Source: Nitrosopumilaceae archaeon
GTDB lineage: Archaea > Thermoproteota > Nitrososphaeria > Nitrososphaerales > Nitrosopumilaceae
Assembly (NCBI GenBank): GCA_965203465.1
Contig: CBDBCR010000001.1
Coordinates: 928,001-992,000, forward strand
Direction: 5' to 3'
Length of the DNA stretch: 64,000 nucleotides
Positions 34,307 through 61,204 of the stretch are shown one piece after another; position 1 is the first letter of the stretch, and each line of letters begins with the position of its first letter. A model generated the notes under the pieces. That model ran no database searches, was not told where the DNA came from, and saw only the letters and a program-made list of their open reading frames with translations. The translations under genes were made by a program, and so were the position numbers.

Positions 34307-34776
34307 ATCTTTAGCGCAGAGGCCGCGTCCCATATGCGGTCCGAGACGTAGTGTATGTTTTTGACGACCTCGCCCCTGCCGCTGGCCTCGGCGTCGGCAG
34401 AGGACAAGCTCGCGGTGCCGACCGCCAGGTGCTTGCCGTGGCGCTCCTCGCGCACGCACACCACCCCGCCCGCGTCGAACTCGCCCATCCGGGTGATGCC
34501 GGGCCGCATGACGTTGGCACCCTTGCAGACGAACTTGACGGCGCCCATGTCGACGGTCACGGAAGGGAACCTTGAGAGCAGATCCGCCTGCGTGAGGAGC
34601 GGCACGTACCGCCCCCCCGCCTGGGCTAGGGCCAGGCCGCCGCCGGCCATTATGCGCGCGCCCTCCAGCTCGTGGACCATCAGGTTCTTGACACGCGGCA
34701 CCTCGAACCCCCACGCCTCGCTCACCTCGCGCAGTATCTGGCCGGTCTGGCTCTTGGAGGCGGGGCTGGACTTCAC
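34303..34776 (-). CDS. PUA-domain RNA-binding protein (MCT-1/Tma20-like)
   Basis: VTVDMGAVKFVCKGANVMRPGI, KNIHYVSD.IW. Confidence 0.9.
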   Translation of the reverse strand: MKSSPASKSQTGQILREVSEAWGFEVPRVKNLMVHELEGARIMAGGGLALAQAGGRYVPLLTQADLLSRFPSVTVDMGAVKFVCKGANVMRPGITRMGEFDAGGVVCVREERHGKHLAVGTASLSSADAEASGRGEVVKNIHYVSDRIWDAASALKI

Positions 34777-35777
34777 GCCGGCACCGTCCTGCCGCGTATG
34801 TCCAGCAGGTCGCGCAGCACCGCGCTGGCCGTCTCGGTGCCGCCCGCGCCCCTGCCTATCACGGTCTGCGTGCCAGAGTGCTCGGACGTGAACGAGATGG
34901 CGTTGAGCGTGCCGTCGACGCAGAGCGGATCGTCGTTGGGCACCTCCCGGGGGCCCACCGAAAGATCCCCGTCGCAGGACGCGACCAGCTTTACCGAGCG
35001 CCCTTTTCCGGCCGCGGCCCTGATCCGGGCCGGGGTCATGCCGCGTATGCCATCCCTCTTTATGTCGCCGAGCACCACCTTCCTGCCCATTATCCAGTTG
35101 GCCAGTATCACCAGCTTTGCCGCCGCGTCGATGCCGTCGAGGTCGAGGGATTCGTCGGCCTCCACGTAGCCCAGCTTTCTTGCCTCTGCCAGGGCCGACT
35201 TGAACGTCATGCCTGACCCCATCCGCGTCAGTATGTAGTTGGTCGTGCCGTTGAGTATGCCCGAGAACGAGGTTATGTGCTCGCCGCGCAGGCTGTTCTT
35301 GGCGTAGTCCAGTATGGGGGTGCCGCCGCCGACGGTCCCGCTGAAGCGCAGCATCACGCGGTTGTAGCCGGCAAGCTCCGTGAGCGAGGGGAACGCCAGG
35401 GCCAGCGGCCCCTTGTTGGCCGTGACCACGTGCATGCCGCGCCTCATGGCCGCCATGATGTGCGACATGCCCGGCTCGGCGTCCCGGTAGTTGCTAGGCG
35501 TCGTCTCCACCAGGACGTCCGCGTCCAGGCTCTCTGCAAGCTCCAGGGCCGGGCGCCCGTCGGCGCCGGGGTACGCGGACACGCCCCCGCGCCTCTTTGC
35601 CTCCGCCAGGCGGGCCGGATCCAAGCCGCCGGGGTCGGAGGCCGAGCCGGTGCTGTCGGCCGCGCCGACTATCCTGACCTTTAGGCCGTAGCGCGAGTAC
35701 AGCTCGTCGCCGCGCGATTCGAGCAGCCCGGCCAGGCCCCTGCCGACGGCCCCAAAGCCGCACAGTATGGCCCTCAT
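34773..35777 (-). CDS. hom: Homoserine dehydrogenase
   Basis: [48 protein letters not shown]. Confidence 0.95.
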
Positions 35778-36142
35778 GCCTTCTCCAGGGCCAGCGAGGC
35801 CGAATTTATGCAGTAGCGCAGGCCCGTGGGCCGGGGCCCGTCGCCGAAGACGTGGCCCAGGTGCGCCCCGCACGAGCAGAGCGCCTCGGTCCTGGCCATG
35901 CCCATGCTGAGGTCCTCCCTTGTTTTTACGGCGCCGCCGGCCCGCCAAAAGCTGGGCCACCCGGTGCCGGAATCGAACTTTGAGGACGAATCGAACAGCG
36001 CCGCGCCGCAGCAGGCGCACCTGTACGTGCCCTTTTCCTTGCAGCCCAAGTACGCGCCGGTGAACGGGGGCTCGGTGGCCCCGTTGACGCACACGTCGTA
36101 CTGCTCCGGCGAGAGCCTCGAGCGCAACTTTTCGTCGTCCAC
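35774..36142 (-). CDS. msrB: Peptide methionine-(R)-sulfoxide reductase
   Basis: [33 protein letters not shown]. Confidence 0.96.
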
Positions 36143-36169
36143 TGCCCCGGCCCGCGCGGCTCGCTATAT

Positions 36170-37768
36170 TTACCTGCGCCGCTTTTTGTACTCTGCTCCT
36201 TTTTCGGATTCCAGCCTGCCGAGCTGGGCGCCGGCGCCGGCGAACCTGACTATCCTGGCCAGGGACGGGTTGACCCTGCGTATGTGGCCGTGCATCAGGG
36301 CCGCCGCGCGCCGGTAGTCCTCGTGGCCCTGCTGCGTGGTGCGTAGCTCTATGAGGTGGACCGCCTCGCGCAGGTTCATGCGGATCATGTACCGGTAGTT
36401 GAACGCGAAATTGACCACGTACTGCGCCTGCTCGGGCATGCGCTTCTCGAGCCTCTTGTGGACGGACCTGGTGTCCCTCATGCACTCGCGGAACCTCTTT
36501 TCGACGCCGGCCTCCCTTATGCCCGGCGGCACGTAGTAGCCCAGATCTGTGCCGAGCAGCTGCCTGTGCAGGGTGAGCAGGCGGTGGCGGTGCAGGTCGC
36601 GGAACGCGCCAAAGTTGGTCACCAAGTCGAACGCGTACCCGGCCGCCTCGAAGGCGCGCGGGGGCCGGTGGCGCCTGCTGCCGCGCAGGGCCGCCACGCC
36701 CGATATGAGGGCGGACTTTTGGCCCTGCGTCATGGCGCCGGCGCGCTTTTTGTTCTCGCGGTACGGCGCGCCCGAGTGCTCGTAGAGCAGGGCGGCCACG
36801 ACCGAATCGAGCGCCTCTTTTTCGGGCCGCCAGTCGGCCAGCCGAACCGATTCGCCTGCCCTGCCCGGCCCCGCGCCGCCGGCCCTCCTGTTGCACAGCT
36901 CGGAGGCGGCCGACATGTACTTTCTTACCGAGTCGCCGTGCGGGCCGTCCGACCTTTTTATGAACGGGCCGATGATGCCGTCCATCTCCTCGCGCAGTTG
37001 CCCGCCTACCCGCCGCTCCTCCTCCAGGCGGGATCCGAGCAGCACCGTGATGAGGTACTCGAAGGCGCGCCCGTTGCCGGTGATTCCGAGGTTGGTCAGC
37101 GCCGAGGCGGGCAGCAGGCCGCGCAGCAGGTCCAGCGCCCTGGCCGTCGAGGCTCTCTTGTAGGCGGATTCGGCCGCGCGCGCGTCGGCCTCGGAGAGCC
37201 TGCCGAACTTTTTGTCCCTGCCGGTCTCGGAGCTGCGAAACGACATCCGCTCTATGGGGCTGGAGCGCGTCACGTATTCGAGCACGGGTTGGAACAGCTC
37301 AGAGTACGTATCAAAGTCGGCGTTGCACGCGTCCTCGTACTCGGAGGCCAGGGCCGAGCCCTCGACGAGCGGATCCCTGTGGAACCTATACTTGCCTCCC
37401 TCCTTTTGATCCCAGCGCACGTAGCGCGTGGACTTTTCTAGGAACGACAGCCCTATGCGCCTGTCCTGCATCTTCTTGACCGCGATGTTGGATATCCCTT
37501 CCACGGCCACCTGAGCCTCGCCAAGCTCGGCCACCGAGTCGTCGCCGTACTCGCCGAGCACGCGCCCGTAGAACTTTGCCCCGCGCGAGGCGTCGCCGGC
37601 AAACTCGTCCAGGAAGACGCGGCGCATGCTCTTCGACGTCCGGCTGTACCGCGACATGAGGGCCCCGCGATCGGCCTGGCTTGGAGTCGTTATGACGAAG
37701 ACGGGACTGTCGTGGTTGCTGAAATGCCCCGCTAGGGCGCGCCGCTCGTTGCGGGTGAACTTTTCCAT
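36170..37768 (-). CDS. thyX: FAD-dependent thymidylate synthase (two-domain ThyX)
   Basis: SRYSR, YGDDSVAEL, EKSTRY, FRDLHRHR, NLRE..H.IELR. Confidence 0.9.
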   Translation of the reverse strand: MEKFTRNERRALAGHFSNHDSPVFVITTPSQADRGALMSRYSRTSKSMRRVFLDEFAGDASRGAKFYGRVLGEYGDDSVAELGEAQVAVEGISNIAVKKMQDRRIGLSFLEKSTRYVRWDQKEGGKYRFHRDPLVEGSALASEYEDACNADFDTYSELFQPVLEYVTRSSPIERMSFRSSETGRDKKFGRLSEADARAAESAYKRASTARALDLLRGLLPASALTNLGITGNGRAFEYLITVLLGSRLEEERRVGGQLREEMDGIIGPFIKRSDGPHGDSVRKYMSAASELCNRRAGGAGPGRAGESVRLADWRPEKEALDSVVAALLYEHSGAPYRENKKRAGAMTQGQKSALISGVAALRGSRRHRPPRAFEAAGYAFDLVTNFGAFRDLHRHRLLTLHRQLLGTDLGYYVPPGIREAGVEKRFRECMRDTRSVHKRLEKRMPEQAQYVVNFAFNYRYMIRMNLREAVHLIELRTTQQGHEDYRRAAALMHGHIRRVNPSLARIVRFAGAGAQLGRLESEKGAEYKKRRR

Positions 37769-37769
37769 G

Positions 37770-38099
37770 TCACTTCTTTATCTGGATCAGATCGGAGCTG
37801 CTGCGCGAGACGCCGGCCGACTGCCACTTTAGCAACACCTCCTTGAACGCCTCGGCCTGGGCCTTGTCTTCGGTGTACATGAGGGCAGTGATCCAGTAGC
37901 CCTCGCCGGCCCTGCCGCCAACCGAGTTCATCCAGAATTTGTCGGGCAGGGTGCTCATGGCCTTGTTGGACGGATCGCCGCACATAGACGACCAGCGCTC
38001 CGAGACGAAGCGGAGGACGGACTCCATCTGGCTGCGGCCGATCACGGTTCGGCCCCGGAGCACCGTGATTTTAACCTCGCGGCCGGAACATGCCGGCAA
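37770..38099 (-). CDS. Hypothetical protein (start uncertain)
   Basis: ORF ends immediately before the thyX start; no recognisable motif. Confidence 0.45.
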   Translation of the reverse strand: MPACSGREVKITVLRGRTVIGRSQMESVLRFVSERWSSMCGDPSNKAMSTLPDKFWMNSVGGRAGEGYWITALMYTEDKAQAEAFKEVLLKWQSAGVSRSSSDLIQIKK

Positions 38100-38297
38100 G
38101 GCTTCTTGAAGACAGGTCGGACGCTTGTGTTTATGTACGGTACGCCCATGTCACGAATATGCGAACTGGCCGATCACGGCCGTGCCTAGACGGTGGCGGT
38201 ACCCAAACACAGACCATTGAGCGCTTGGCAAATGTTATAATTGAGGTGTGTGGACGCGTGCGCACATGGCTACGCCCGTTTGCGTGAGGGGTTTGCA

Positions 38298-40833
38298 ATG
38301 AGCCACAAGACTCCTCGCACGGGGGGGGGGGGGGCGGAAACCTCGTAAACCTCGTCGGCACAAACCTGCCAAACAAAGTTCTGTAACGGTCGAGCAATAC
38401 ACGCACGGCGATCAGAGACCCAATAACCCACCTGTGGGTTTGGTAACGCCTGGCACTGATCCTGACGGCCCGCCAGCCAAATACGAACACGATCCGCGGA
38501 TCAGCCCCCATCTGTCGTGGGCGGGCAAACGTGAAACGCCGGGGTTTGAGGTAGATACCGTCTCGTTGCATACACACGAGAGGGTTGATCCGTCTACTAT
38601 AATAGAAAAGGCATTTAGATCAGAACCTACATCTGCACAGCGTACGTTGTTTTTTGACCAGCCTGAAAACAACCCGCCGTTGAGAGATGCAGTCGACTTT
38701 TACCAACACGATCAAAATTGGACGAACAGGCTGATCGCCGGAGATTCGCTTCTTGTGATGAATTCGTTGTTAGAAAAGGAGGGTATGGAGGGTAAGGTTC
38801 AAACAATATACATAGATCCGCCATATGGAATAAAATATCATTCAAACTTTCAACCGTTTGTTAGCAAAAAGAGCGCCAGGGATGGCAACGACAAAGACAT
38901 GACACAGGAACCAGAAATGATCAAGGCTTTTAGGGATACTTGGAAACTCGGGATTCATTCGTACCTTTCCTATTTGAGAGATCGGTTATTGTTGGCAAAA
39001 AAACTCCTAGCTGACAGTGGGAGTATATTTGTTCAGATATCGATTGAGAACCTACACCACGTTCGAGAGGTTATGGACGAAGTGTTTGGCAACGCCAACT
39101 TCTGCTCTATGATTGTGTTTGCCACTACTACCGGCAAGGGTTCAAAACTACTTGATACTGTAAACGATTTTATTTTGTGGTACGCGAAGGACAAAAAACA
39201 AGTCAAATATAGGCAATTGTACGCCAAAAAAACACTCTCTGACACACAATCCTATGATTTTGTTGAGGATGAAGATGGTGGACGACATGATCTGTCAGAT
39301 GCCGAAAAACAGGACATCGCAACCTACAAAAACCTCAAAGTATTTTGCATCGGTGACACAACATCTGCGTCGTCTAGCCCAAGCACTGTTTTTGAATTTG
39401 AATTCGATGGTGAAAAATTCAACCCTAAACCCCCGAGTGGTTGGAAAACAAACCTACAAGGCATGCAAAATCTAGAGCGCAAGAATAGATTGAGAAAAAA
39501 GGGCAGCAAGCTAGGATATGTTAGATTTTGGAGTGATTTTCCTTTTAAGCGTTTAGATCACATGTGGTCTGACACAAGCCTAGGGTTTGCGAAAAAACTA
39601 TATGTTGTTCGTACCAGTACCAAAGTAATCAAGCGGTGCATTTTGATGACAACTGATCCTGGCGATCTCGTATTGGATCCCACATGCGGTTCAGGCACAA
39701 CGGCGTTCGTGGCAGAAGACTGGGGTAGAAGATGGATCACTTGCGACACGTCTCGGATAGCAATAGCAATTACTCGAAAACGATTGATGACTGCGTTTTA
39801 CAAATACTACAAGCTAGCATACCCCAACACTGGAGTCTCTGCAGGCTTCATATACAAGCAAGCCAAACACGTCACTCTAGAGTCGGTAGCGCAAGACAAA
39901 GAGCCAGAAATTGAAACTTTGTATGATTGCCCAGATCTAGACAACACGCGACATCGTGTATCTGGTCCGTTTACCGTCGAGGCTGTCCCTTCTCCGACCG
40001 CAGTATCGATCGATGCTTTGAATCAACAGGTGGATGGAGAACAACAGGGGGACGGCAGTGCTAACGCTACGCGCCAACAAGAGTGGCGTGACAGTCTACT
40101 AAGGACTGGCATTAGAGGCAAGGGTGGCGATCGAACTCATTTTTTACGCGTCGAGCCACACCCTGTCACAAAACACCTTCACGCTAAGGCTGATACTGGA
40201 TCCGGGGATTTGGCGGTAGTCTCTTTCGGCCCAGAGCATGCGCCATTGGAACAGAGACAGGTGGCGCGCGCACTTGAAGAGGCGGAAAGCTTAGTACCCA
40301 AGCCAAAGATCGTAGTGTTTGCAGCAATGCAGTTTGATCCGGAGGCGGCCAAGGACATAGACGAGACTCGATGGCCGGGCGTGCGAATAATGCGAGCTGA
40401 AATGAACAAGGATCTGCTTACCGCGGATCTCAAAAAAGGCAAGATTAGCGACGACCTATTTTGGCAGGTTGGACGTCCAGATGTAGATCTAGAAACAAGG
40501 AACGGAATGAATGTGGTGACGGTGCGCGGGTTTGATTTCTTTAACGCTGACGGCAAAATTGTCTCGGGAGATGCATCCAACATAGCAATGTGGATGCTCG
40601 ACGAGGATTATGACGGACGTAGTATCTATCCGGGGCAGGTGTTCTTTCCTATGCAAGATGGGGGATGGGAAAAGCTGGCCAAGACGCTTAGGACAAAAAT
40701 TGATCTAGATCTGATCAAAAAATACGCAGGAACTGAATCCATACCATTCAAGACTCGGGACAACAAGCGAGCAGCCGTCAAGATAATCGATGACAGGGGC
40801 ATTGAATCCGTCAGGATATTAGATCTGGAATGA
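38298..40833 (+). CDS. mod: Type III R-M N6-adenine methyltransferase Mod; 5' end out of frame at the G14 tract
   Basis: NRLIAGDSL, IYIDPPY (motif IV), VLDPTCGSGTT (motif I), beta-class order; the mod frame extends upstream of 38434 (VEQYTH..RPNNPPVGLV) to the poly-G; ATG 38298 is preceded by GAGGGG. Confidence 0.92.
38321..38334 (+). repeat. G14 homopolymer tract in the mod 5' coding region
   Basis: 14 consecutive G, the longest homopolymer I found in the window. Confidence 0.95.
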
Positions 40834-43676
40834 AAGGCATCGGCAATCTTGTTATTTGTGGTCCGTATGATGAGCCTGACAGACACTGGAAGTACGATCG
40901 CGTTAGGCGGGAGTTTGAACTTGTTAAGGAAAGACGTGCGGCTGGGTTTCTCATCGCGTCAAAGAACAGCCAGTCATTTGATGACCCTGGCAGGTTTGTT
41001 CCTATAGATGCGGTCAACCGCATACGGGATAGAGTGCGGATGTGGAGAAAATCTGGATACCCACACGTTACCGGTATTACCAAGAGTCTGTTGGAGTTTT
41101 GGCACAACAGTGACATCCGCGAAAACAATCTTTTTTTCTGTCAGCTTGAGGCAATCGAGACGCTGATCTGGATGGTGGAGGTGCCTGAAGCACAACGTCA
41201 AGGACTTGGACTGGTTCAGGACGGCGGGGAGTTTGAGCGCTTGTGCTGCAAGATGGCGACCGGAACTGGAAAGACTGTCGTTATGGGAATGCTCGTGGCA
41301 TGGCAGGTGATCAACAAGGCCACATACCCACAAGATGCTCGGTTCTCGAGGCACATACTTGTCATGGCGCCTGGACTGACTGTCAAATCTAGGCTTCAAG
41401 TGTTGTTACCGGATTCTCCAGACAGCATATACGCGGAGTTTGGCCTCGTGCCGGAATCGTTGTATCAAAAACTCAGAAAAGGCCACGTTGTGGTGCACAA
41501 CTGGCACAAGCTCGTTCCGGAACAGGATACCCCAAAGAGCGTAGTAAAACTAGGAAATGAAAGTCACACCGCGTTTTCTAGAAGAATACTGGAGCATGAT
41601 TATGATCGGATCGTAGTAATAAACGACGAAGCTCACCACGCTTACAGGGCTGGACAGGCCAAGAATGTGTTAAAATCTGAACTCGATCAAGATCGGAAAT
41701 GGATGGAAGGCCTTGACCTAATACACAAGGCACGGACTGTAGTGAGATGTTTTGACTTCTCTGCTACTCCGTTTGTTCCATCTGGCAACGCCGCCATCGA
41801 ATCAGCGCTATTTGGATGGATAGTTTCGGACTTTTCTCTCAACGATGCTATCGAGTCGGGCCTTACAAAGACACCGAAAATAGTTGTAAAGGACGACGCT
41901 AGGCAGTTTGACGAAGAATATAGATCTCGGTTCTATCACATTTACATGGATCGCGAAGTAAACGCAGACATTAACCGTAAGGCAAAGCCTGAAGAACCGT
42001 TGCCAGACCTTATTCACAATGCGTACATGCTGCTGGGAAAAGACTGGGATCAGCGGCGACGCGTGTGGGAGGAGAACGGTTCGGTAGTGCCGCCGGTCAT
42101 GATCACGGTCTGCAACAGGACGGAGACTGCGGCCAGGATAATGCACTCGTTCCAAAATGGCAAGTTTGAGGTAGGAGGCATGTCGGATCCGGTGCACACA
42201 GTGCACATCGATACAAACACACTCAAAAAAGCCGAAGGATCTGTAGGCGACAAGGCATCTGAGCGCCTGCGGCGCAAGGTCAACACGGTCGGCAAGCGCG
42301 GGGAGCCGGGAGAGCAGGTTCGCAACGTCGTTGCAGTACAGATGCTCACAGAGGGCTGGGACGCAAAAAACGTCACGCACATAATGGGTCTGCGGGCCTT
42401 TGCCAGCCAGCTCCTCTGCGAGCAGGTGGTCGGGAGGGGGCTACGTAGAACATCGTACGTGGTAGATCCGGCCACGGGCCTGCTGCCTACCGAGCATGTG
42501 AACGTCTTTGGCGTGCCGTTCACGTTCCTTCCGCACGAGGATGGGGGAGACGACGGGCCTCCCCCGCCGCCCACCACCTTGATAGAGCCGGATCCGGCCA
42601 AGGCCGAGCACGAGATCTCGTGGCCCAACGTGGAGAGGATAGATGTGGTCTTTTCACACGTGCTACGGGTGGACTGGAGCCGTGCGCGGCGCTTGGAGCT
42701 GAGTAGCGACAAGACGGCCACCATCGCGAGCTTGGCGCCTGTCATTGCCGGCAAACCTGCTGTCAGCGGCATGTCGGATCTAGATCTCCGTAACCTCTGC
42801 ACGGATCTGAGAATGCAGCGCGTTATGTTCATGACTGCTCGGAACATCTATGATTCCATTGGCGGAGGCTGGACGGGGGGGTCGACATCACTTCTGGCAC
42901 AGCTAGTCGTACTGGTAGAAGAGTACATGGCACGAGGGCTGGCATCCGTGCCCGACGCCAAAGGAGATCTTTTGCGGACGCGCATGACGCTGATATTCAA
43001 CATGAAGAAGATATCTGCCGAGCTTGAAAGGATCATAAAGACTGACAGCACCGAGAAAAGAGAGATCGTCCTGGGTCAAGTCAAGCATAAATCGACTGCA
43101 CACATGCAGAGGTGGTACACACCAAAGCACGCGATGCACGCATTAAAATGTCACGCCAATCTTGCGGTATACGACTCGTCGTGGGAGGCTGGCGCCGGCG
43201 AAGAGATGGAGCGCAGCGATTTGGTGATCTCGTGGGCCCGCAACTTCAAGATAGGGTTTGTCATAAAGTACCTGTACCGGGGAGTCACGCACGACTACTA
43301 TCCGGACTTTCTGGTGCGCCTTGCCAACGGCGTGACGCTGATCCTGGAGATCAAGGGACGGGACGACGAGCAGAACCGCCGAAAGAGAGAATCCCTCCAA
43401 GAATGGGTGGACGCAGTCAACGAGACCGGCGCGTACGGCGCGTGGGCTTGCGACGTGGCGTTCAGCCCAGGCGATGTCGGCGCGATCCTCAAAAAACACG
43501 CAACCTCCGACATATCATCAAAAGAACGAGCAAAGTGCCCTCGGTGCCTCAGGACTGCCCTCACCAGGCAGGAGGTCGAAAGCGCGTTTGGGTTCCGCAA
43601 CGCGGGCGGGATCGTCAGGCCGCAGTCGTGGTGCCGGGACTGCCGGGCCGGACAGCCTACAGGCAGCGCGGGCTGA
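40830..43676 (+). CDS. res: Type III restriction enzyme Res (SF2 helicase + PD-(D/E)XK) with a C-terminal Cys4 extension
   Basis: FCQLEAIET, MATGTGKT, DEAHH, SATP, EGWD, QVVGRGLR, YYPDFLV..ILEIKG; ATGA-coupled to mod. Confidence 0.93.
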   Translation: MKGIGNLVICGPYDEPDRHWKYDRVRREFELVKERRAAGFLIASKNSQSFDDPGRFVPIDAVNRIRDRVRMWRKSGYPHVTGITKSLLEFWHNSDIRENNLFFCQLEAIETLIWMVEVPEAQRQGLGLVQDGGEFERLCCKMATGTGKTVVMGMLVAWQVINKATYPQDARFSRHILVMAPGLTVKSRLQVLLPDSPDSIYAEFGLVPESLYQKLRKGHVVVHNWHKLVPEQDTPKSVVKLGNESHTAFSRRILEHDYDRIVVINDEAHHAYRAGQAKNVLKSELDQDRKWMEGLDLIHKARTVVRCFDFSATPFVPSGNAAIESALFGWIVSDFSLNDAIESGLTKTPKIVVKDDARQFDEEYRSRFYHIYMDREVNADINRKAKPEEPLPDLIHNAYMLLGKDWDQRRRVWEENGSVVPPVMITVCNRTETAARIMHSFQNGKFEVGGMSDPVHTVHIDTNTLKKAEGSVGDKASERLRRKVNTVGKRGEPGEQVRNVVAVQMLTEGWDAKNVTHIMGLRAFASQLLCEQVVGRGLRRTSYVVDPATGLLPTEHVNVFGVPFTFLPHEDGGDDGPPPPPTTLIEPDPAKAEHEISWPNVERIDVVFSHVLRVDWSRARRLELSSDKTATIASLAPVIAGKPAVSGMSDLDLRNLCTDLRMQRVMFMTARNIYDSIGGGWTGGSTSLLAQLVVLVEEYMARGLASVPDAKGDLLRTRMTLIFNMKKISAELERIIKTDSTEKREIVLGQVKHKSTAHMQRWYTPKHAMHALKCHANLAVYDSSWEAGAGEEMERSDLVISWARNFKIGFVIKYLYRGVTHDYYPDFLVRLANGVTLILEIKGRDDEQNRRKRESLQEWVDAVNETGAYGAWACDVAFSPGDVGAILKKHATSDISSKERAKCPRCLRTALTRQEVESAFGFRNAGGIVRPQSWCRDCRAGQPTGSAG

Positions 43677-43795
43677 CTGGCCGGTTTCGAGTAGCCCGGA
43701 ACGGCCGCCTGCGAGGCGCGGGGTCTATTTATTATGACCAAGCATCCAACAATACTGACACGCGGGCGGTTATACCCTTTTGGCGATGCCCGTCC

Positions 43796-44539
43796 ATGAA
43801 CAACACCGAGACCGAGCTCGTAGCAAAGCCGGTCAAGGACATGTACGGGACGCCCATGGGTACCATCCTTGGCACGATCACCGACATCGACGGCAGCATC
43901 CAGACGGTCGCCATAGACTGCGGGTCTGCCGGCCTGCTCCAGGTGCCCTTCGAGCAGCTGGTGGTGCAGGGCGACGTGGTGGTCTTTGTGCCAAAGTGGC
44001 GGCTCGACTCCCAGAGGCTCATCCGGGAGAAGGGCCTGGTGCTCAGGAGGCTCAAGGCGCTTCTGGGCATAGTGGCAGAAGACGACGAGATGAAGCAGGA
44101 CGCCGAGGTCATACACGGCAGGTACCGCGACAGGCTCTCCTCGCTGGAAGAGTCCGAGCGCTCCATCTGCGCCGTGCTCGAATCGCGCCTTGCAGAGCTG
44201 GACTCGCAGATGAGGGCGGCAAAGACCGTCGTCTTCGACGCGAAAGTCCAGTTCCGCAGCGGCGAGATAGGCGAGGCCGCCTTTGAGCGCGTCCGCAAGC
44301 AGTCCGAGTCGCTGGTCGACCACATCGTCCACGAGCGCGCCGAGATAGCCAACGTCCAGAGGCGCATAGCCGACCTGGACATGGAGATCAAGGATGCCAC
44401 CTCGACGCCCCCGGTGCAGGAGTCGGCTGCCGGCTACATCGCCCAAGAGCCGACCGCCCCGCTGCCCGAGGCGCCCACCGGCGAGCCCGAAGCGCCCGCG
44501 CAGGACTGGCTTTCCAGGATGGAAGCGCAGCAGGCCTGA
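43796..44539 (+). CDS. cdvA: Cell division protein CdvA
   Basis: PRC-barrel N-terminus (KPVKDMYG..G.I...TDIDG), then coiled coil, K.Q..SGEI.E. Confidence 0.88.
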   Translation: MNNTETELVAKPVKDMYGTPMGTILGTITDIDGSIQTVAIDCGSAGLLQVPFEQLVVQGDVVVFVPKWRLDSQRLIREKGLVLRRLKALLGIVAEDDEMKQDAEVIHGRYRDRLSSLEESERSICAVLESRLAELDSQMRAAKTVVFDAKVQFRSGEIGEAAFERVRKQSESLVDHIVHERAEIANVQRRIADLDMEIKDATSTPPVQESAAGYIAQEPTAPLPEAPTGEPEAPAQDWLSRMEAQQA

Positions 44540-44613: not shown

Positions 44614-46470
44614 GTGGGGTACGTGCGCGGGCTGGGCCGCAGCGGCGGGGGCGTGCGGGAGCTGGCCGGGCGCGACAGCGCCTCGTTCTGGGAGGGGCAG
44701 GCGCGCCTGCTCGACTGGCACGCCCCGTGGGACAGGGCGCTGCGGTGGGATCCGCCGCGCGCAAGGTGGTTCGAGGGCGGGCGCATCAACGCGTGCTACA
44801 ACGCGCTGGACAGGCACGCCGACAAGTCAAAGACGGCGATACTGTGGGAGGCAGAAGACGGGAGCTCGCGCTCTTTTTCGTACTCGGATCTCTTGTCGGA
44901 GGCCGAGCGCGTGGCAGGCGCGCTCTCCTCCATGGGGGTCTCAAAGGGGGACAGGGTGGCCATATACCTGCCCATGGTGCCCGAGCTGCCCGTATCGATG
45001 CTGGCATGCGCCCGGATAGGGGCCGTCCACGCGGTCGTCTTTTCGGGGTTCGGCGCGGCGGCCCTCAGGCAGAGGCTGGAGGATTCGGGCGCGAGGGCGC
45101 TGATCACGGCCGACGGCATGTACAGGCGCGGCAGGGCGATCCCGCTAAAGCCGGCCGCCGACGAGGCCGCGCGCGGCCTGCCCGTCGAAAGCACGGTGGT
45201 GGTGCGCAGGACCGGCCAACAGACGCGGATGGGCCAGCGCGACCTGTGGTGGGACGAGCTTGAGGGGAGAGCGCCGGCCCTCCCCGTCGAGAGCTCGCAC
45301 CCGCTCTTTATACTGTACACGTCCGGGACCACCGGCAAGCCCAAGGGAATACTGCACGGGACCGGCGGGTACCTGACGCACGTCCACTCTACGTTCAGGT
45401 GGGCGTTCGACCTACGGGACGGGGACGTGTACTGGTGCACGGCCGACATCGGGTGGGTGACAGGGCACAGCTACGTGGTGTACGGGCCGCTCATGTGCGG
45501 GGCCACGCAGGTGATCTACGAGGGGGCCCCCGACCACCCGACGCCGGAGCGCCCGTGGCAGATAGCCTCAAAGCGCGGGGCCACGATACTGTACACCACG
45601 CCGACGGCGCTGCGGATGCTCATGCGCCGCGGCGATCCGCCCGCCGGCTGCGACCTGTCGGCGCTGCGCCTGCTGGGGACCGTTGGCGAGCCGATAAACC
45701 CGGAGGTCTGGCGTTGGTACCACGATTCGGTCGGGGGCCGGCGCTGCCCCGTAATAGACACGTGGTGGCAGACCGAGACGGGCGGCATGATGGTCTCGGC
45801 GCTGCCCGGCATCGAGGACGCGGATCCGAAGCCGGGCTCGGCCGGGTTCCCGGTGCCGGGCGTGCGCCTGTCGGTGCTGGACGGGGACGGCGCCGAGGCC
45901 GGGCCGGGCGAGCGCGGGTACCTGACGATAGACGGCCCGTGGCCGGGCATGATGCTGACGGTGTGGGGCGACGAGGAGAGGTACGAACAGTACTGGTCAA
46001 AGTACCCGGGCAGGTACTACGCGGGCGACTATGCGGTGCGCGACCAAGACGGGTACTTTTGGGTGCTGGGCCGCGCCGACGACGTCCTGAAGGTCTCGGG
46101 CCACCGCCTGGGGACCGCCGAGCTCGAATCCGCGCTGGTCTCGCACCCCGGCGTGGCAGAGGCGGCCGTGTGCGGGGTGCCCGACGAGGTGCGCGGCGAG
46201 GCCATAGCCGCGTTCGCGGTGCTGCGCGAGGGCGCCTCGTGCACAGGCGAAGAGCTGGTCGAGTGGGTGCGTCAAAAGATGGGCGCCGTGGCCGCCCCGT
46301 CGCGCATGCACATAGTGCCCCGCCTGCCAAAGACGCGCAGCGGCAAGATAATGAGGAGGCTGCTGCGCGATCTGGCCGAGGGCAGAGAGGCCGGCGATAC
46401 GAGCACCATCGAGGATCCGGGGGCCGTCTCGGACGTGCGCGCGGCGATAAAGGGGCGCGATCGGGCCTAG
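44614..46470 (+). CDS. acs: Acetate--CoA ligase (AMP-forming)
   Basis: [50 protein letters not shown]. Confidence 0.93.
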
Positions 46471-49783: not shown

Positions 49784-49878
49784 GGACCGGTCGTCTAGCC
49801 TGGTTTGGATGACGCACTCACACTGCGTAAGGGGCCCTGCCCCCGCAAAGGTCGCGGGTTCGAATCCCACCCGGTCCA
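49784..49878 (+). tRNA. tRNA-Val(CAC) with a 20-nt intron at 44/45 (49830-49849)
   Basis: Acceptor stem GGACCGG/CCGGTCC; anticodon stem ACGCA/TGCGT with loop CTCACAC; TTCGAAT T-loop; BHB motif around the insert. Confidence 0.92.
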
Positions 49879-49957
49879 CACTCTATCTTGTCCCTTTTGT
49901 CGGAACCGGAGGCGCGACGTCCCGTGAAGACGACGCGCGCCGGGTTAAGGGCGTGGC

Positions 49958-61105: not shown

Positions 61106-61204
61106 GCCGGGATCGCCTAGCCTGGTAGGGCGCGCGCCTGGAATCTGTGCCATATAGCGCGTTCTCGCAAGGGATCGGGAGTTCGAATCTCCCTCCCGGC
61201 GCCA
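61106..61204 (+). tRNA. tRNA-Ser(GGA) with a 12-nt canonical 37/38 intron (61144-61155) and encoded CCA
   Basis: Acceptor stem GCCGGGA/TCCCGGC; anticodon stem CGCGC/GCGCG; long variable arm; TTCGAAT T-loop. Confidence 0.92.

Follow-up and report, generated by a model that had tools for sequence, protein, structure and literature searches.

A poly-G tract of variable length at the 5' end of a Type III methyltransferase gene suggests a slippage switch in an ammonia-oxidizing archaeon

Phase-variable Type III mod genes (phasevarions) are described in Helicobacter pylori, in which the repeat is a poly-G tract, and in Haemophilus and Neisseria (survey by Atack et al. 2018, PMC5909438). In these systems, a simple repeat in the 5' part of the mod open reading frame puts the gene in or out of frame, and mod precedes res. 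Campylobacter jejuni and H. pylori, whose genomes are AT-rich, carry tens of G/C tracts with a length distribution separate from the background, concentrated at the 5' ends of surface-structure and restriction-modification genes and with a mixture of ON and OFF states. Among archaea, Pyrobaculum aerophilum reportedly shows length variation of G:C runs and is thought to lack MutS/MutL-type repair; this was described as a general mutator trait and not as tracts placed at the starts of particular gene classes, and the literature search on this topic gave no primary paper, only a news item (PMC2447274). Searches on phase variation, phasevarions, contingency loci and homopolymers in archaea, including Thaumarchaeota, Cenarchaeum and sponge ammonia oxidizers, found general repeat statistics that include archaea (PMC2831843, PMC3315296) and two reviews of archaeal restriction-modification that cite phasevarions only for bacteria (PMC10609329, PMC11033074), but no published archaeal phase-variable locus. 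The main text of the Atack survey has no occurrence of "archaea", although its supplementary tables, which were not covered, might list an archaeal mod.

The locus lies in a window of 64,000 nucleotides (the whole stretch of DNA analyzed) from a Nitrosopumilaceae archaeon. An earlier note proposed, from the letters alone, that a G14 run throws a Type III mod gene out of frame, that 13 or 16 G would restore it, and that this is a slipped-strand switch of methylation and possibly of restriction in an archaeon. The observation is confirmed in every detail. Specifically, the run is flanked by a C on either side, the start codon ATG 38298-38300 is in phase 0 and the mod frame in phase 1, where a TGA at 38299-38301 precedes the open stretch, so that removing one G or adding two (13 or 16, and also 10) joins the two frames, whereas 14, 12 and 11 do not. 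In 100 dinucleotide-preserving shuffles, a run of 12 or more G is expected 0.06 times per window, and 1 of 100 shuffles reached the observed 3 overlapping matches.

Features of the mod-res locus (positions in the window)
Position (strand)	Feature	Basis
38086..43718 (+)	Low-GC stretch that holds only mod and res, between housekeeping genes	GC 0.516 against 0.655 and 0.666 in the flanks; flanking genes are homoserine dehydrogenase 34773-36896 (-) and acetate--CoA ligase 44614-46470 (+)
38235..38241 (+)	TATA-like heptamer about 57 nt upstream of ATG 38298 (possible archaeal promoter)	Read by eye; inferred only, no promoter test was run
38298..38348 (+)	Native start codon and 8-codon leader, which in the G14 state runs on to a premature TAA (38346-38348; 16 codons)	Translation; leader matches that of in-frame relatives P0126 and P0005 at 7 of 8 residues
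38321..38334 (+)	G14 homopolymer, the frame-switching tract (in frame at 10, 13 or 16 G)	Sequence and shuffles; 14 G in X1, 12 in X3, 11 in X4
38302..40833 (+)	mod open frame, 843 codons, stop at 40831-40833: Type III beta-class N6-adenine methyltransferase	PF01555 112.5 bits (aa 166-490); PADLOC MTase_III 477.5 bits; nearest solved chains 6k0w Mod and 4zcf EcoP15I Mod
38434..38436 (+)	Internal GTG, first ATG/GTG/TTG in the mod frame and start of the 799-aa gene calls; not the native start	Conserved QYTH..NNPP motif lies upstream of it in most homologues compared
40830..43676 (+)	res, 948 aa, intact; its ATG overlaps the mod stop (ATGA)	PF04851 ResIII 40.4 bits (aa 103-283); NF046055 BPTD_3080-family restriction endonuclease 948.2 bits, cut-off 800; PADLOC REase_III weak at 47 bits

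The gene pair is a Type III restriction-modification operon, with mod directly upstream of res. The Mod translation shows, read by eye, a DPPY motif (motif IV) and, further downstream, the motif I-like DPTCGSGTT, and Res carries a superfamily-2 helicase-like ATPase domain. A PD...E-x-K-like stretch is visible by eye near the C-terminus of Res but was not examined by profile or structure, so the presence of the PD-(D/E)xK nuclease motif is left undecided, while Mod-dependent, ATP-dependent cleavage and hemimethylation of an asymmetric site were not assayed. No structure or complex prediction was run, and none of the claims made here needs one. The central region of Mod, where a target-recognition domain would lie, is the most divergent part between alleles, with 72% identity at aa 301-440 against 92-94% in the flanks. 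The host is archaeal, as the earlier note guessed: an archaeal SSU rRNA model scores 1441.8 bits, archaeal AmoA scores 383 bits with 0 of 14 control genomes matching, and two tRNA genes in the window are 96 and 99 nt long, a length that suggests introns. A contig of one public run (X5) joins 38085 to 43719 and skips 5633 bases at a depth of 7.7, with a shorter side of 30 letters, and is tentatively an allele without the low-GC stretch.

Alignment of homologous Mod N-termini, which had been proposed as a way to decide whether the region before GTG 38434 is coding, shows that it is. There are at least 120 homologues, mostly 828-865 aa long and covering 97-99% of the query, and most of the 58 N-termini compared carry the motif (V/I)xQYTH..R.NNPPVGLV upstream of the position of this codon. 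Translation from GTG 38434 or the neighboring TTG 38440, independently of the tract, had been named as an outcome that would overturn the switch, and is very unlikely: although gene callers chose the internal codon on at least six contigs, such a start would remove the motif and cut inside the NNPPVGLV block, and full-length relatives start at the upstream ATG with a conserved leader.

A single invariant length across populations had likewise been named as grounds for rejection, and the run is instead 14, 12 and 11 G in contigs of three public runs from three studies. The X1 contig (8255 nt) has 0 differences and G14, although X1 may be the sample from which the window was assembled, so that G14 has no independent confirmation; the X3 contig (1595 nt, 6 substitutions) lacks 2 G and the X4 contig (6220 nt, depth 53, 21 substitutions) lacks 3 G, and in both the tract is the only indel inside mod-res. 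X5 has no contig across the tract, which speaks neither for nor against variation. All three lengths are OFF, and since the comparison used assembled contigs, which hide minority lengths, frequent and reversible switching within a clonal lineage is not shown here. Conversely, in-frame alleles occur in relatives: P0126 (843 aa, 726/836 identical, 87%) and P0005 (85% identical) start with the same leader, continue with four glycines and then RKPRKP, whereas six other near-identical gene calls start at the internal GTG/TTG. The tract lengths of P0126, P0005 and P0004 are inferred from the protein N-termini only, and no in-frame allele was seen closer than 87% identity or within the roughly 99% lineage of the window. 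A scan of metagenome contigs for closer alleles gave a best hit of 56% identity and no new tract alleles. All 4 listed SNPs in mod are synonymous, while 3 of the 4 listed in res change a residue, with 113 further differences not examined, and both genes are open over 843 and 948 codons in DNA of roughly 47-55% GC.

The survey of related mod genes for simple repeats, also suggested beforehand, shows that such tracts recur. A second Type III mod of this genome is split at a G11 at about codon 87, with its res intact; among relatives, genome G016 has two mod genes with 5' C11 and C26 tracts, and one mod of genome G036 lies on a contig that ends in C31+C22. This amounts to 5 of 11 full-length mod homologues in the related genomes, against 0 of 157 homologous loci from elsewhere, located by tblastn, with any G/C run of 8 or more at the 5' end (a regular-expression search for the NNPP motif was too strict, with 12 of 160 loci, and was replaced). 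The second mod (G11) and the G016 mod (C11) are out of frame as well.

Moreover, the tract is one of 49 G/C runs of 10-18 nt in the genome, a larger picture that the earlier note missed. Genome-wide, G/C runs fall by a factor of 0.16 per base from length 5 to 9, which predicts about 0.7 runs of 10 or more, and the length distribution is bimodal. A plain i.i.d. model predicts 40 such runs but fails at every length, with 23 observed against 340 expected at lengths 8-9 and 27 against about 1.4 at 13 or more, and was rejected. The runs are strand-biased, with 16 G to 1 C on contig C1 and 1 G to 23 C on contig C3, and 18 of 49 lie within 70 codons of the start of an open frame of at least 300 aa on the G strand, against 9.65% of 20000 random positions (P = 3e-7). 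Of the 16 longest open frames, 14 carry a tract at the 5' end; the products of tract-bearing genes carry Ig-like, FG-GAP, LVIVD, EPTP and beta-helix domains, or are DndB, a PLD+SNF2 helicase or a ParB_N protein. Both states are represented, since the FG-GAP gene at G000:C1:1010391 is in frame while the one at C3:223043 is, as read by eye, out of frame. Related assemblies show the same excess, with any run of 11 G in 16 of 61 related genomes, and no MutS domain was found in this genome, which is 96.9% complete.

In comparison with the bacterial mod systems, the host here is an archaeon with a 65% GC genome and res is intact. In comparison with the Campylobacter and Helicobacter repertoires, the target genes are giant, at 2300-9000 codons, and 11 tracts sit directly 3' of a TATA-like box, lying in 6 of the 11 between the box and a start codon 4-20 nt after the tract, an archaeal promoter geometry with no bacterial counterpart.

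The interpretation given in the earlier note is supported as far as a hypermutable, frame-switching tract in a restriction-modification gene is concerned; no methylome or transcriptome was examined, so that a phasevarion in the sense of a methylation-controlled regulon is untested. The explanation held with fair confidence is that the G14 run is a hypermutable homopolymer in codons 8-12 of mod, at which slipped-strand mispairing during replication adds or removes G's. In this view, with 10, 13 or 16 G translation from ATG 38298 would read through a short poly-glycine stretch into the full 843-residue Mod, and with any other length it would stop after 16-27 codons. Type III Res depends on Mod to find its DNA site, as established for EcoP15I-type enzymes, and with the res start coupled to the mod stop, the OFF state should silence both methylation and restriction. 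The set of about 49 tracts, with G on the sense strand at the 5' ends of giant secreted surface-protein genes and defence genes, would then make a contingency-locus repertoire like those of Campylobacter, Helicobacter and Neisseria, in an archaeon whose DNA is found in sponge and marine metagenome runs. The analysis itself demonstrates the anatomy, the coding status of the N-terminus, the length polymorphism between populations, the in-frame and out-of-frame alleles among close relatives and the genome-wide pattern, whereas slippage as the cause, reversibility within a lineage, the effect on Res and any adaptive value are inferences.

Other explanations are less likely. The system could be a horizontally acquired pseudogene on its way to being lost, with the G run as a neutral mutational hotspot and the frameshift as the first lesion; the OFF state of all alleles seen in this lineage, of the second mod and of the G016 mod, the low-GC acquired stretch that one contig appears to lack, and the non-synonymous res SNPs are in line with this. 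However, both genes are otherwise intact over 1790 codons, the tract is the only indel in two other populations, the mod SNPs are synonymous, and the leader and tract have persisted through substantial divergence, as shown by the in-frame relatives. Tracts also recur at mod 5' ends in three genera, as G or as C and at different codons, which decay alone does not predict; this reading is considered unlikely.

An assembly or base-calling error concealing an in-frame G13, with the gene simply on and nothing switching, is very unlikely: homopolymers of this length are error-prone on every platform, and the agreeing run may be the source data, but two runs from other studies give lengths that differ from each other and from 14, one at depth 53, gene calls on six independent near-identical contigs also start at the internal codon, and 49 tracts with a consistent strand and gene position cannot be artefacts. 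Rescue by RNA polymerase slippage or ribosomal frameshifting, by which the tract would tune expression level instead of acting as an on/off switch, is also improbable but could act together with the DNA switch. Transcriptional slippage on long homopolymers is established in bacteria and endosymbionts, the tracts always have G on the sense strand, which would fit a function in the RNA, and persistent OFF lengths alongside intact genes fit leaky expression; neither RNA nor protein data were available, nothing in the analysis tests this rescue, and it does not explain why the DNA length differs between populations.

A broader reading, considered about as likely as not, is that this lineage has evolved a full contingency-locus repertoire, in which about 50 poly-G tracts gate 14 of its 16 largest surface-protein genes and at least five defence genes, two of them Type III mod genes. 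This would be the first such system in Archaea, and where the tract lies between the TATA box and a nearby start codon, a change in length could move the transcription start relative to the start codon of a leaderless or nearly leaderless mRNA. Stochastic on/off switching by repeat slippage is a hallmark of host-adapted bacteria, and phase variation is still described as a bacterial phenomenon. The finding would also affect annotation, since these genes are at present called as truncated proteins or split pseudogenes, and would make archaeal bet-hedging and epigenetic heterogeneity directly testable with existing long-read metagenomes. If the reading holds, an archaeon uses the same strategy for its restriction-modification systems and for nearly all of its giant surface proteins, which implies strong fluctuating selection, from viruses and from contact with a host or particle surface, on a nitrifier usually viewed as metabolically and genetically staid.

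The G14 run is flanked by a c on each side and separates two reading frames of the window: a short frame that enters the run from ATG 38298 and stops after 16 codons, and a long frame, preceded immediately by a TGA, that remains open for 843 codons and whose first ATG, GTG or TTG is GTG 38434. The two frames differ by one base, so that tracts of 13, 16 or 10 G join them, while the downstream res gene is intact and its start overlaps the mod stop as ATGA. The observation made in the earlier note, namely that a G14 run keeps an ATG out of frame with a Type III mod gene, is correct in all its coordinates and in its arithmetic. A run of 12 or more G is expected 0.06 times per window in dinucleotide shuffles.

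Coordinates of the features in the window and in the rest of the genome (G000, the genome that contains the window; C1 to C4, its contigs; L119, the extracted stretch that contains the second Type III operon)
Feature	Position	Description
Indel cluster	window 38048-38054	3-letter cluster upstream of mod
Junction in a contig of run X5	window 38085/43719	skips the mod-res stretch (5633 bases)
Short frame	window, ATG 38298 to TAA 38346	16 codons
TGA before the long frame	window 38299
G14 tract	window 38321-38334	c-G14-c
Long frame (mod)	window 38302 to stop at 40831-40833	843 codons
Conserved N-terminal motif	window, about 38386-38445	upstream of and across GTG 38434
First ATG/GTG/TTG of the long frame	window, GTG 38434
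res	window 40830-43676	948 aa
tRNA-Val	window 49784-49879	96 nt
tRNA-Phe	window 61106-61204	99 nt
NucS_C match	G000:C1:332922-333236	63.7 bits
Second Type III operon	G000:C1:337026-342366 (L119 1027-6366)	res of 953 aa
Tract in the second mod	L119 1286-1296	G11, at about codon 87
Adjacent open frames	G000:C1:342956-351120	1892 and 832 codons
Tract at their boundary	C1:348613-348622	G10
Shared layout of two giant paralogues	G000:C1:648361-648410 and C3:421820-421875 (minus strand)	7440 and 6135 codons
FG-GAP gene, in frame	C1:1010391	G14
FG-GAP genes, not in frame	C3:223043, C3:326667
Tracts after a TATA-like hexamer	C1:505630, C1:1025001, C2:85243, C2:92781, C2:113230, C3:193317, C3:277247, C3:442058, C3:507089, C3:609216, C4:5436	eleven tracts
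Repeated element of about 60 nt	C1:313680, C1:689437, C1:812532, C3:87241	four copies, each with a G12-13 tract

The long frame contains a PF01555 DNA-methylase domain (112.5 bits), matches a PADLOC Type III methyltransferase model at 477.5 bits, and has Type III Mod chains, 6k0w and EcoP15I 4zcf, as its nearest solved relatives. The res product contains a ResIII helicase domain and passes the NCBIfam cut-off for the BPTD_3080 restriction-endonuclease family (948.2 against 800 bits). The pair lies in a stretch of 51.6% GC between flanks of 65.5-66.6%, and sits between a homoserine dehydrogenase gene and an acetate--CoA ligase gene. One contig of the public run X5 (depth 7.7) joins the two sides of the mod-res stretch directly, hinting at an allele that lacks all 5.6 kb, although the support is thin (one contig, with 30 letters on the shorter side); other X5 contigs carry the stretch at depth 3-9, and this may be a presence/absence polymorphism.

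The host is an ammonia-oxidising archaeon with a genome of 2.26 Mb in 4 contigs at 65% GC, an archaeal SSU rRNA (1441.8 bits) and an archaeal AmoA (383 bits; 0 of 14 control genomes match), and two tRNA genes in the window have a length that suggests introns. The stretch is found in sponge-metagenome and marine-metagenome runs, from which a sponge-associated way of life is inferred to be likely.

Comparison of homologous N-termini, which the earlier note had named as the means to establish whether the region upstream of GTG 38434 is coding, places the native start upstream. Of 120 homologues listed, most are 828-865 aa and cover 97-99% of the query, and most of the 58 N-termini inspected show a short basic leader followed by (V/I)xQYTH..(K/R)R.NNPPVGLV, a motif that a protein begun at GTG 38434 would lose. 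Two close relatives prove the point: the homologues P0126 (843 aa; 726 of 836 residues identical) and P0005 (85% identical) begin with a leader that matches that of the window at 7 of 8 residues, followed by four glycines and by the same RKPRKP continuation, which is what an in-frame run would encode. Six other gene calls in the same 85-100% group (P0003, P0123, P0124, P0004, P0127 and P0128) start at the internal GTG/TTG, as a gene caller does when the upstream part is out of frame, and one more, P0125, is a shorter fragment.

The constancy of the tract length across populations, which had been set out beforehand as an outcome that would count against a switch, was examined by comparing contigs of four public runs with positions 36500-44500, and the length is not constant. 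Specifically, the contig of X1, possibly the source sample (8255 nt, 0 differences from the window), carries G14; that of X3, a sponge metagenome from another study (1595 nt, 6 substitutions), leaves out 2 G and carries G12; that of X4, a marine metagenome from a third study (6220 nt, depth 53, 21 substitutions), leaves out 3 G and carries G11; and no contig of X5 crosses the tract. In both X3 and X4 the tract is the only indel inside mod-res, the only other indels being the 3-letter cluster upstream of the gene, and the tract is therefore the indel hotspot of the locus. All three lengths are out of frame, which is unremarkable by chance ((2/3)^3 = 0.30) but means that no ON allele was seen in this roughly 99% lineage; since contigs do not show minority lengths, switching within a population is not proven by these data. 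There are signs that the genes are maintained: both ORFs are open over 1790 codons, the 4 SNPs listed inside mod are all synonymous and 1 of the 4 listed in res is synonymous, with 113 further differences in the 8-kb stretch not itemised. Between the Mod of the window and P0126, identity is 92-94% in the N- and C-terminal parts but 72% at aa 301-440, between the two catalytic motifs, where the target-recognition domains of Type III enzymes lie.

The tract is part of a genome-wide set. G/C runs fall from 3890 at length 5 to 3 at length 9 and then rise again to 4, 8, 10, 10, 7, 6, 2, 0 and 2 at lengths 10-18, originating a bimodal distribution with 49 runs of 10-18 nt, of which only the G14 run lies in the window, whereas extrapolation of the decay predicts about 0.7; A/T runs of 10 or more number two. 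The strand bias is extreme (16 G to 1 C on C1, 1 G to 23 C on C3, 4 to 0 on C2 and 3 to 1 on C4), suggesting an orientation tied to gene direction or to the replichore. An open frame of at least 250 aa starts within 200 nt downstream on the G strand at 35 of the 49 runs, and 18 of 49 lie within 70 codons of the 5' end of a frame of at least 300 aa, against 9.65% of 20000 random positions (P = 3e-7) and 8 of 49 on the opposite strand. Of the 16 longest open frames of the genome (2329-9068 codons), 13 have a tract of 11 or more G within -85 to +392 nt of the start of the frame, one more has its tract after a TATA-like box further in, and two have none.

The sequences just after the tracts look like signal peptides, with a hydrophobic stretch followed by ..AEATTPT.., as judged by eye and without a predictor. 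Pfam scans of the first 900 residues or fewer of 27 tract-linked frames gave hits in 17, including surface-protein domains (Ig-like domains, EPTP, LVIVD and CopC, FG-GAP in three genes, beta-helix in five, and a PKD domain) and defence-type proteins (DndB at 373 bits, a PLD + SNF2 helicase corresponding to PADLOC HKD+Snf2 and DrmD-like, and a ParB_N protein). The states are mixed, since one FG-GAP gene is in frame through its G14 and two others, read by eye, are not. Eleven tracts begin 7-18 nt after the start of a TATA-like hexamer, and in 6 of the 11 a start codon follows 4-20 nt after the tract, in an arrangement in which the tract length would set the distance from TATA to start codon, a possible switch at the level of transcription start on leaderless or short-leader mRNAs. 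Two giant paralogues share the layout ATG, 13-14 nt, G15 or G13, TAG, 3 nt, TTG, in which a tiny upstream ORF runs through the tract and ends just before the likely TTG start, and tract length might control termination-reinitiation coupling. A G10 lies where an open frame of 1892 codons ends and another of 832 codons begins, which may be one giant gene split at an internal tract, and the downstream part has no Pfam hit. Lastly, the four copies of a repeated element of about 60 nt carry their tract at the same place within nearly identical flanks; the nature of this element was not identified.

The survey of other mod genes, likewise suggested in the earlier note, shows that tracts recur in them. 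The mod of a second complete Type III operon of the genome starts with the same conserved N-terminal motif and is frame-shifted at a G11 that would be in frame at G10 or G13, while its res is intact. Among related genomes, G016 has two mod homologues with C11 (out of frame) and C26 tracts a few codons after the start, and one of three G036 homologues lies on a contig that ends in C31+C22 at the 5' end of the gene, while the mod homologues of G004, G031, G049 and G003 and the other two of G036 have none. This makes 5 of 11 in these relatives, and among 157 homologous loci from other bacteria and archaea none has a G/C run of 8 or more in the 5' region and one has an A9. Runs of 11 G occur in 16 of 61 related genomes, including all 4 other members of the genus, and are heavily present in G016 (92 overlapping matches to an 11-G pattern) and G036 (492, with several contigs holding runs of more than 20), while the other 45 give none. 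The trait is therefore lineage-restricted, the homopolymer excess being confined to a few genera of the family.

The best reading is slipped-strand mispairing at a hypermutable tract that switches Mod on and off. Res depends on Mod for recognition and its start is coupled to the mod stop, so that restriction should switch with it, both steps being inferred. No MutS domain was found in the genome, which is 96.9% complete (0 matches to MutS domain V), while one NucS domain is present; NucS-type repair does not correct indel loops, which would leave slippage uncorrected. Among the alternatives, decay of an acquired system is unlikely yet the strongest of them, rescue by transcriptional or ribosomal slippage is less likely, and a miscalled tract length and translation from the internal GTG are both very unlikely, the latter slightly more so.

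The interpretation proposed in the earlier note, a slippage switch in an archaeal Type III mod gene, is supported. The locus satisfies the sequence-level criteria for a contingency locus, although reversibility within a clone and the regulon that defines a phasevarion were not measured. In anatomy this is a phase-variable Type III mod gene like those of Helicobacter, Haemophilus and Neisseria, and the genome-wide set resembles the poly-G repertoires of Campylobacter and Helicobacter. Searches of the literature and within individual papers found no archaeal example, and the survey of Type III systems does not mention archaea in its main text (PMC5909438), its supplements not being covered by the search. 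The mechanism is familiar, while the domain of life, the high-GC setting, the link to giant surface-protein genes and the placement next to TATA-like boxes are not.
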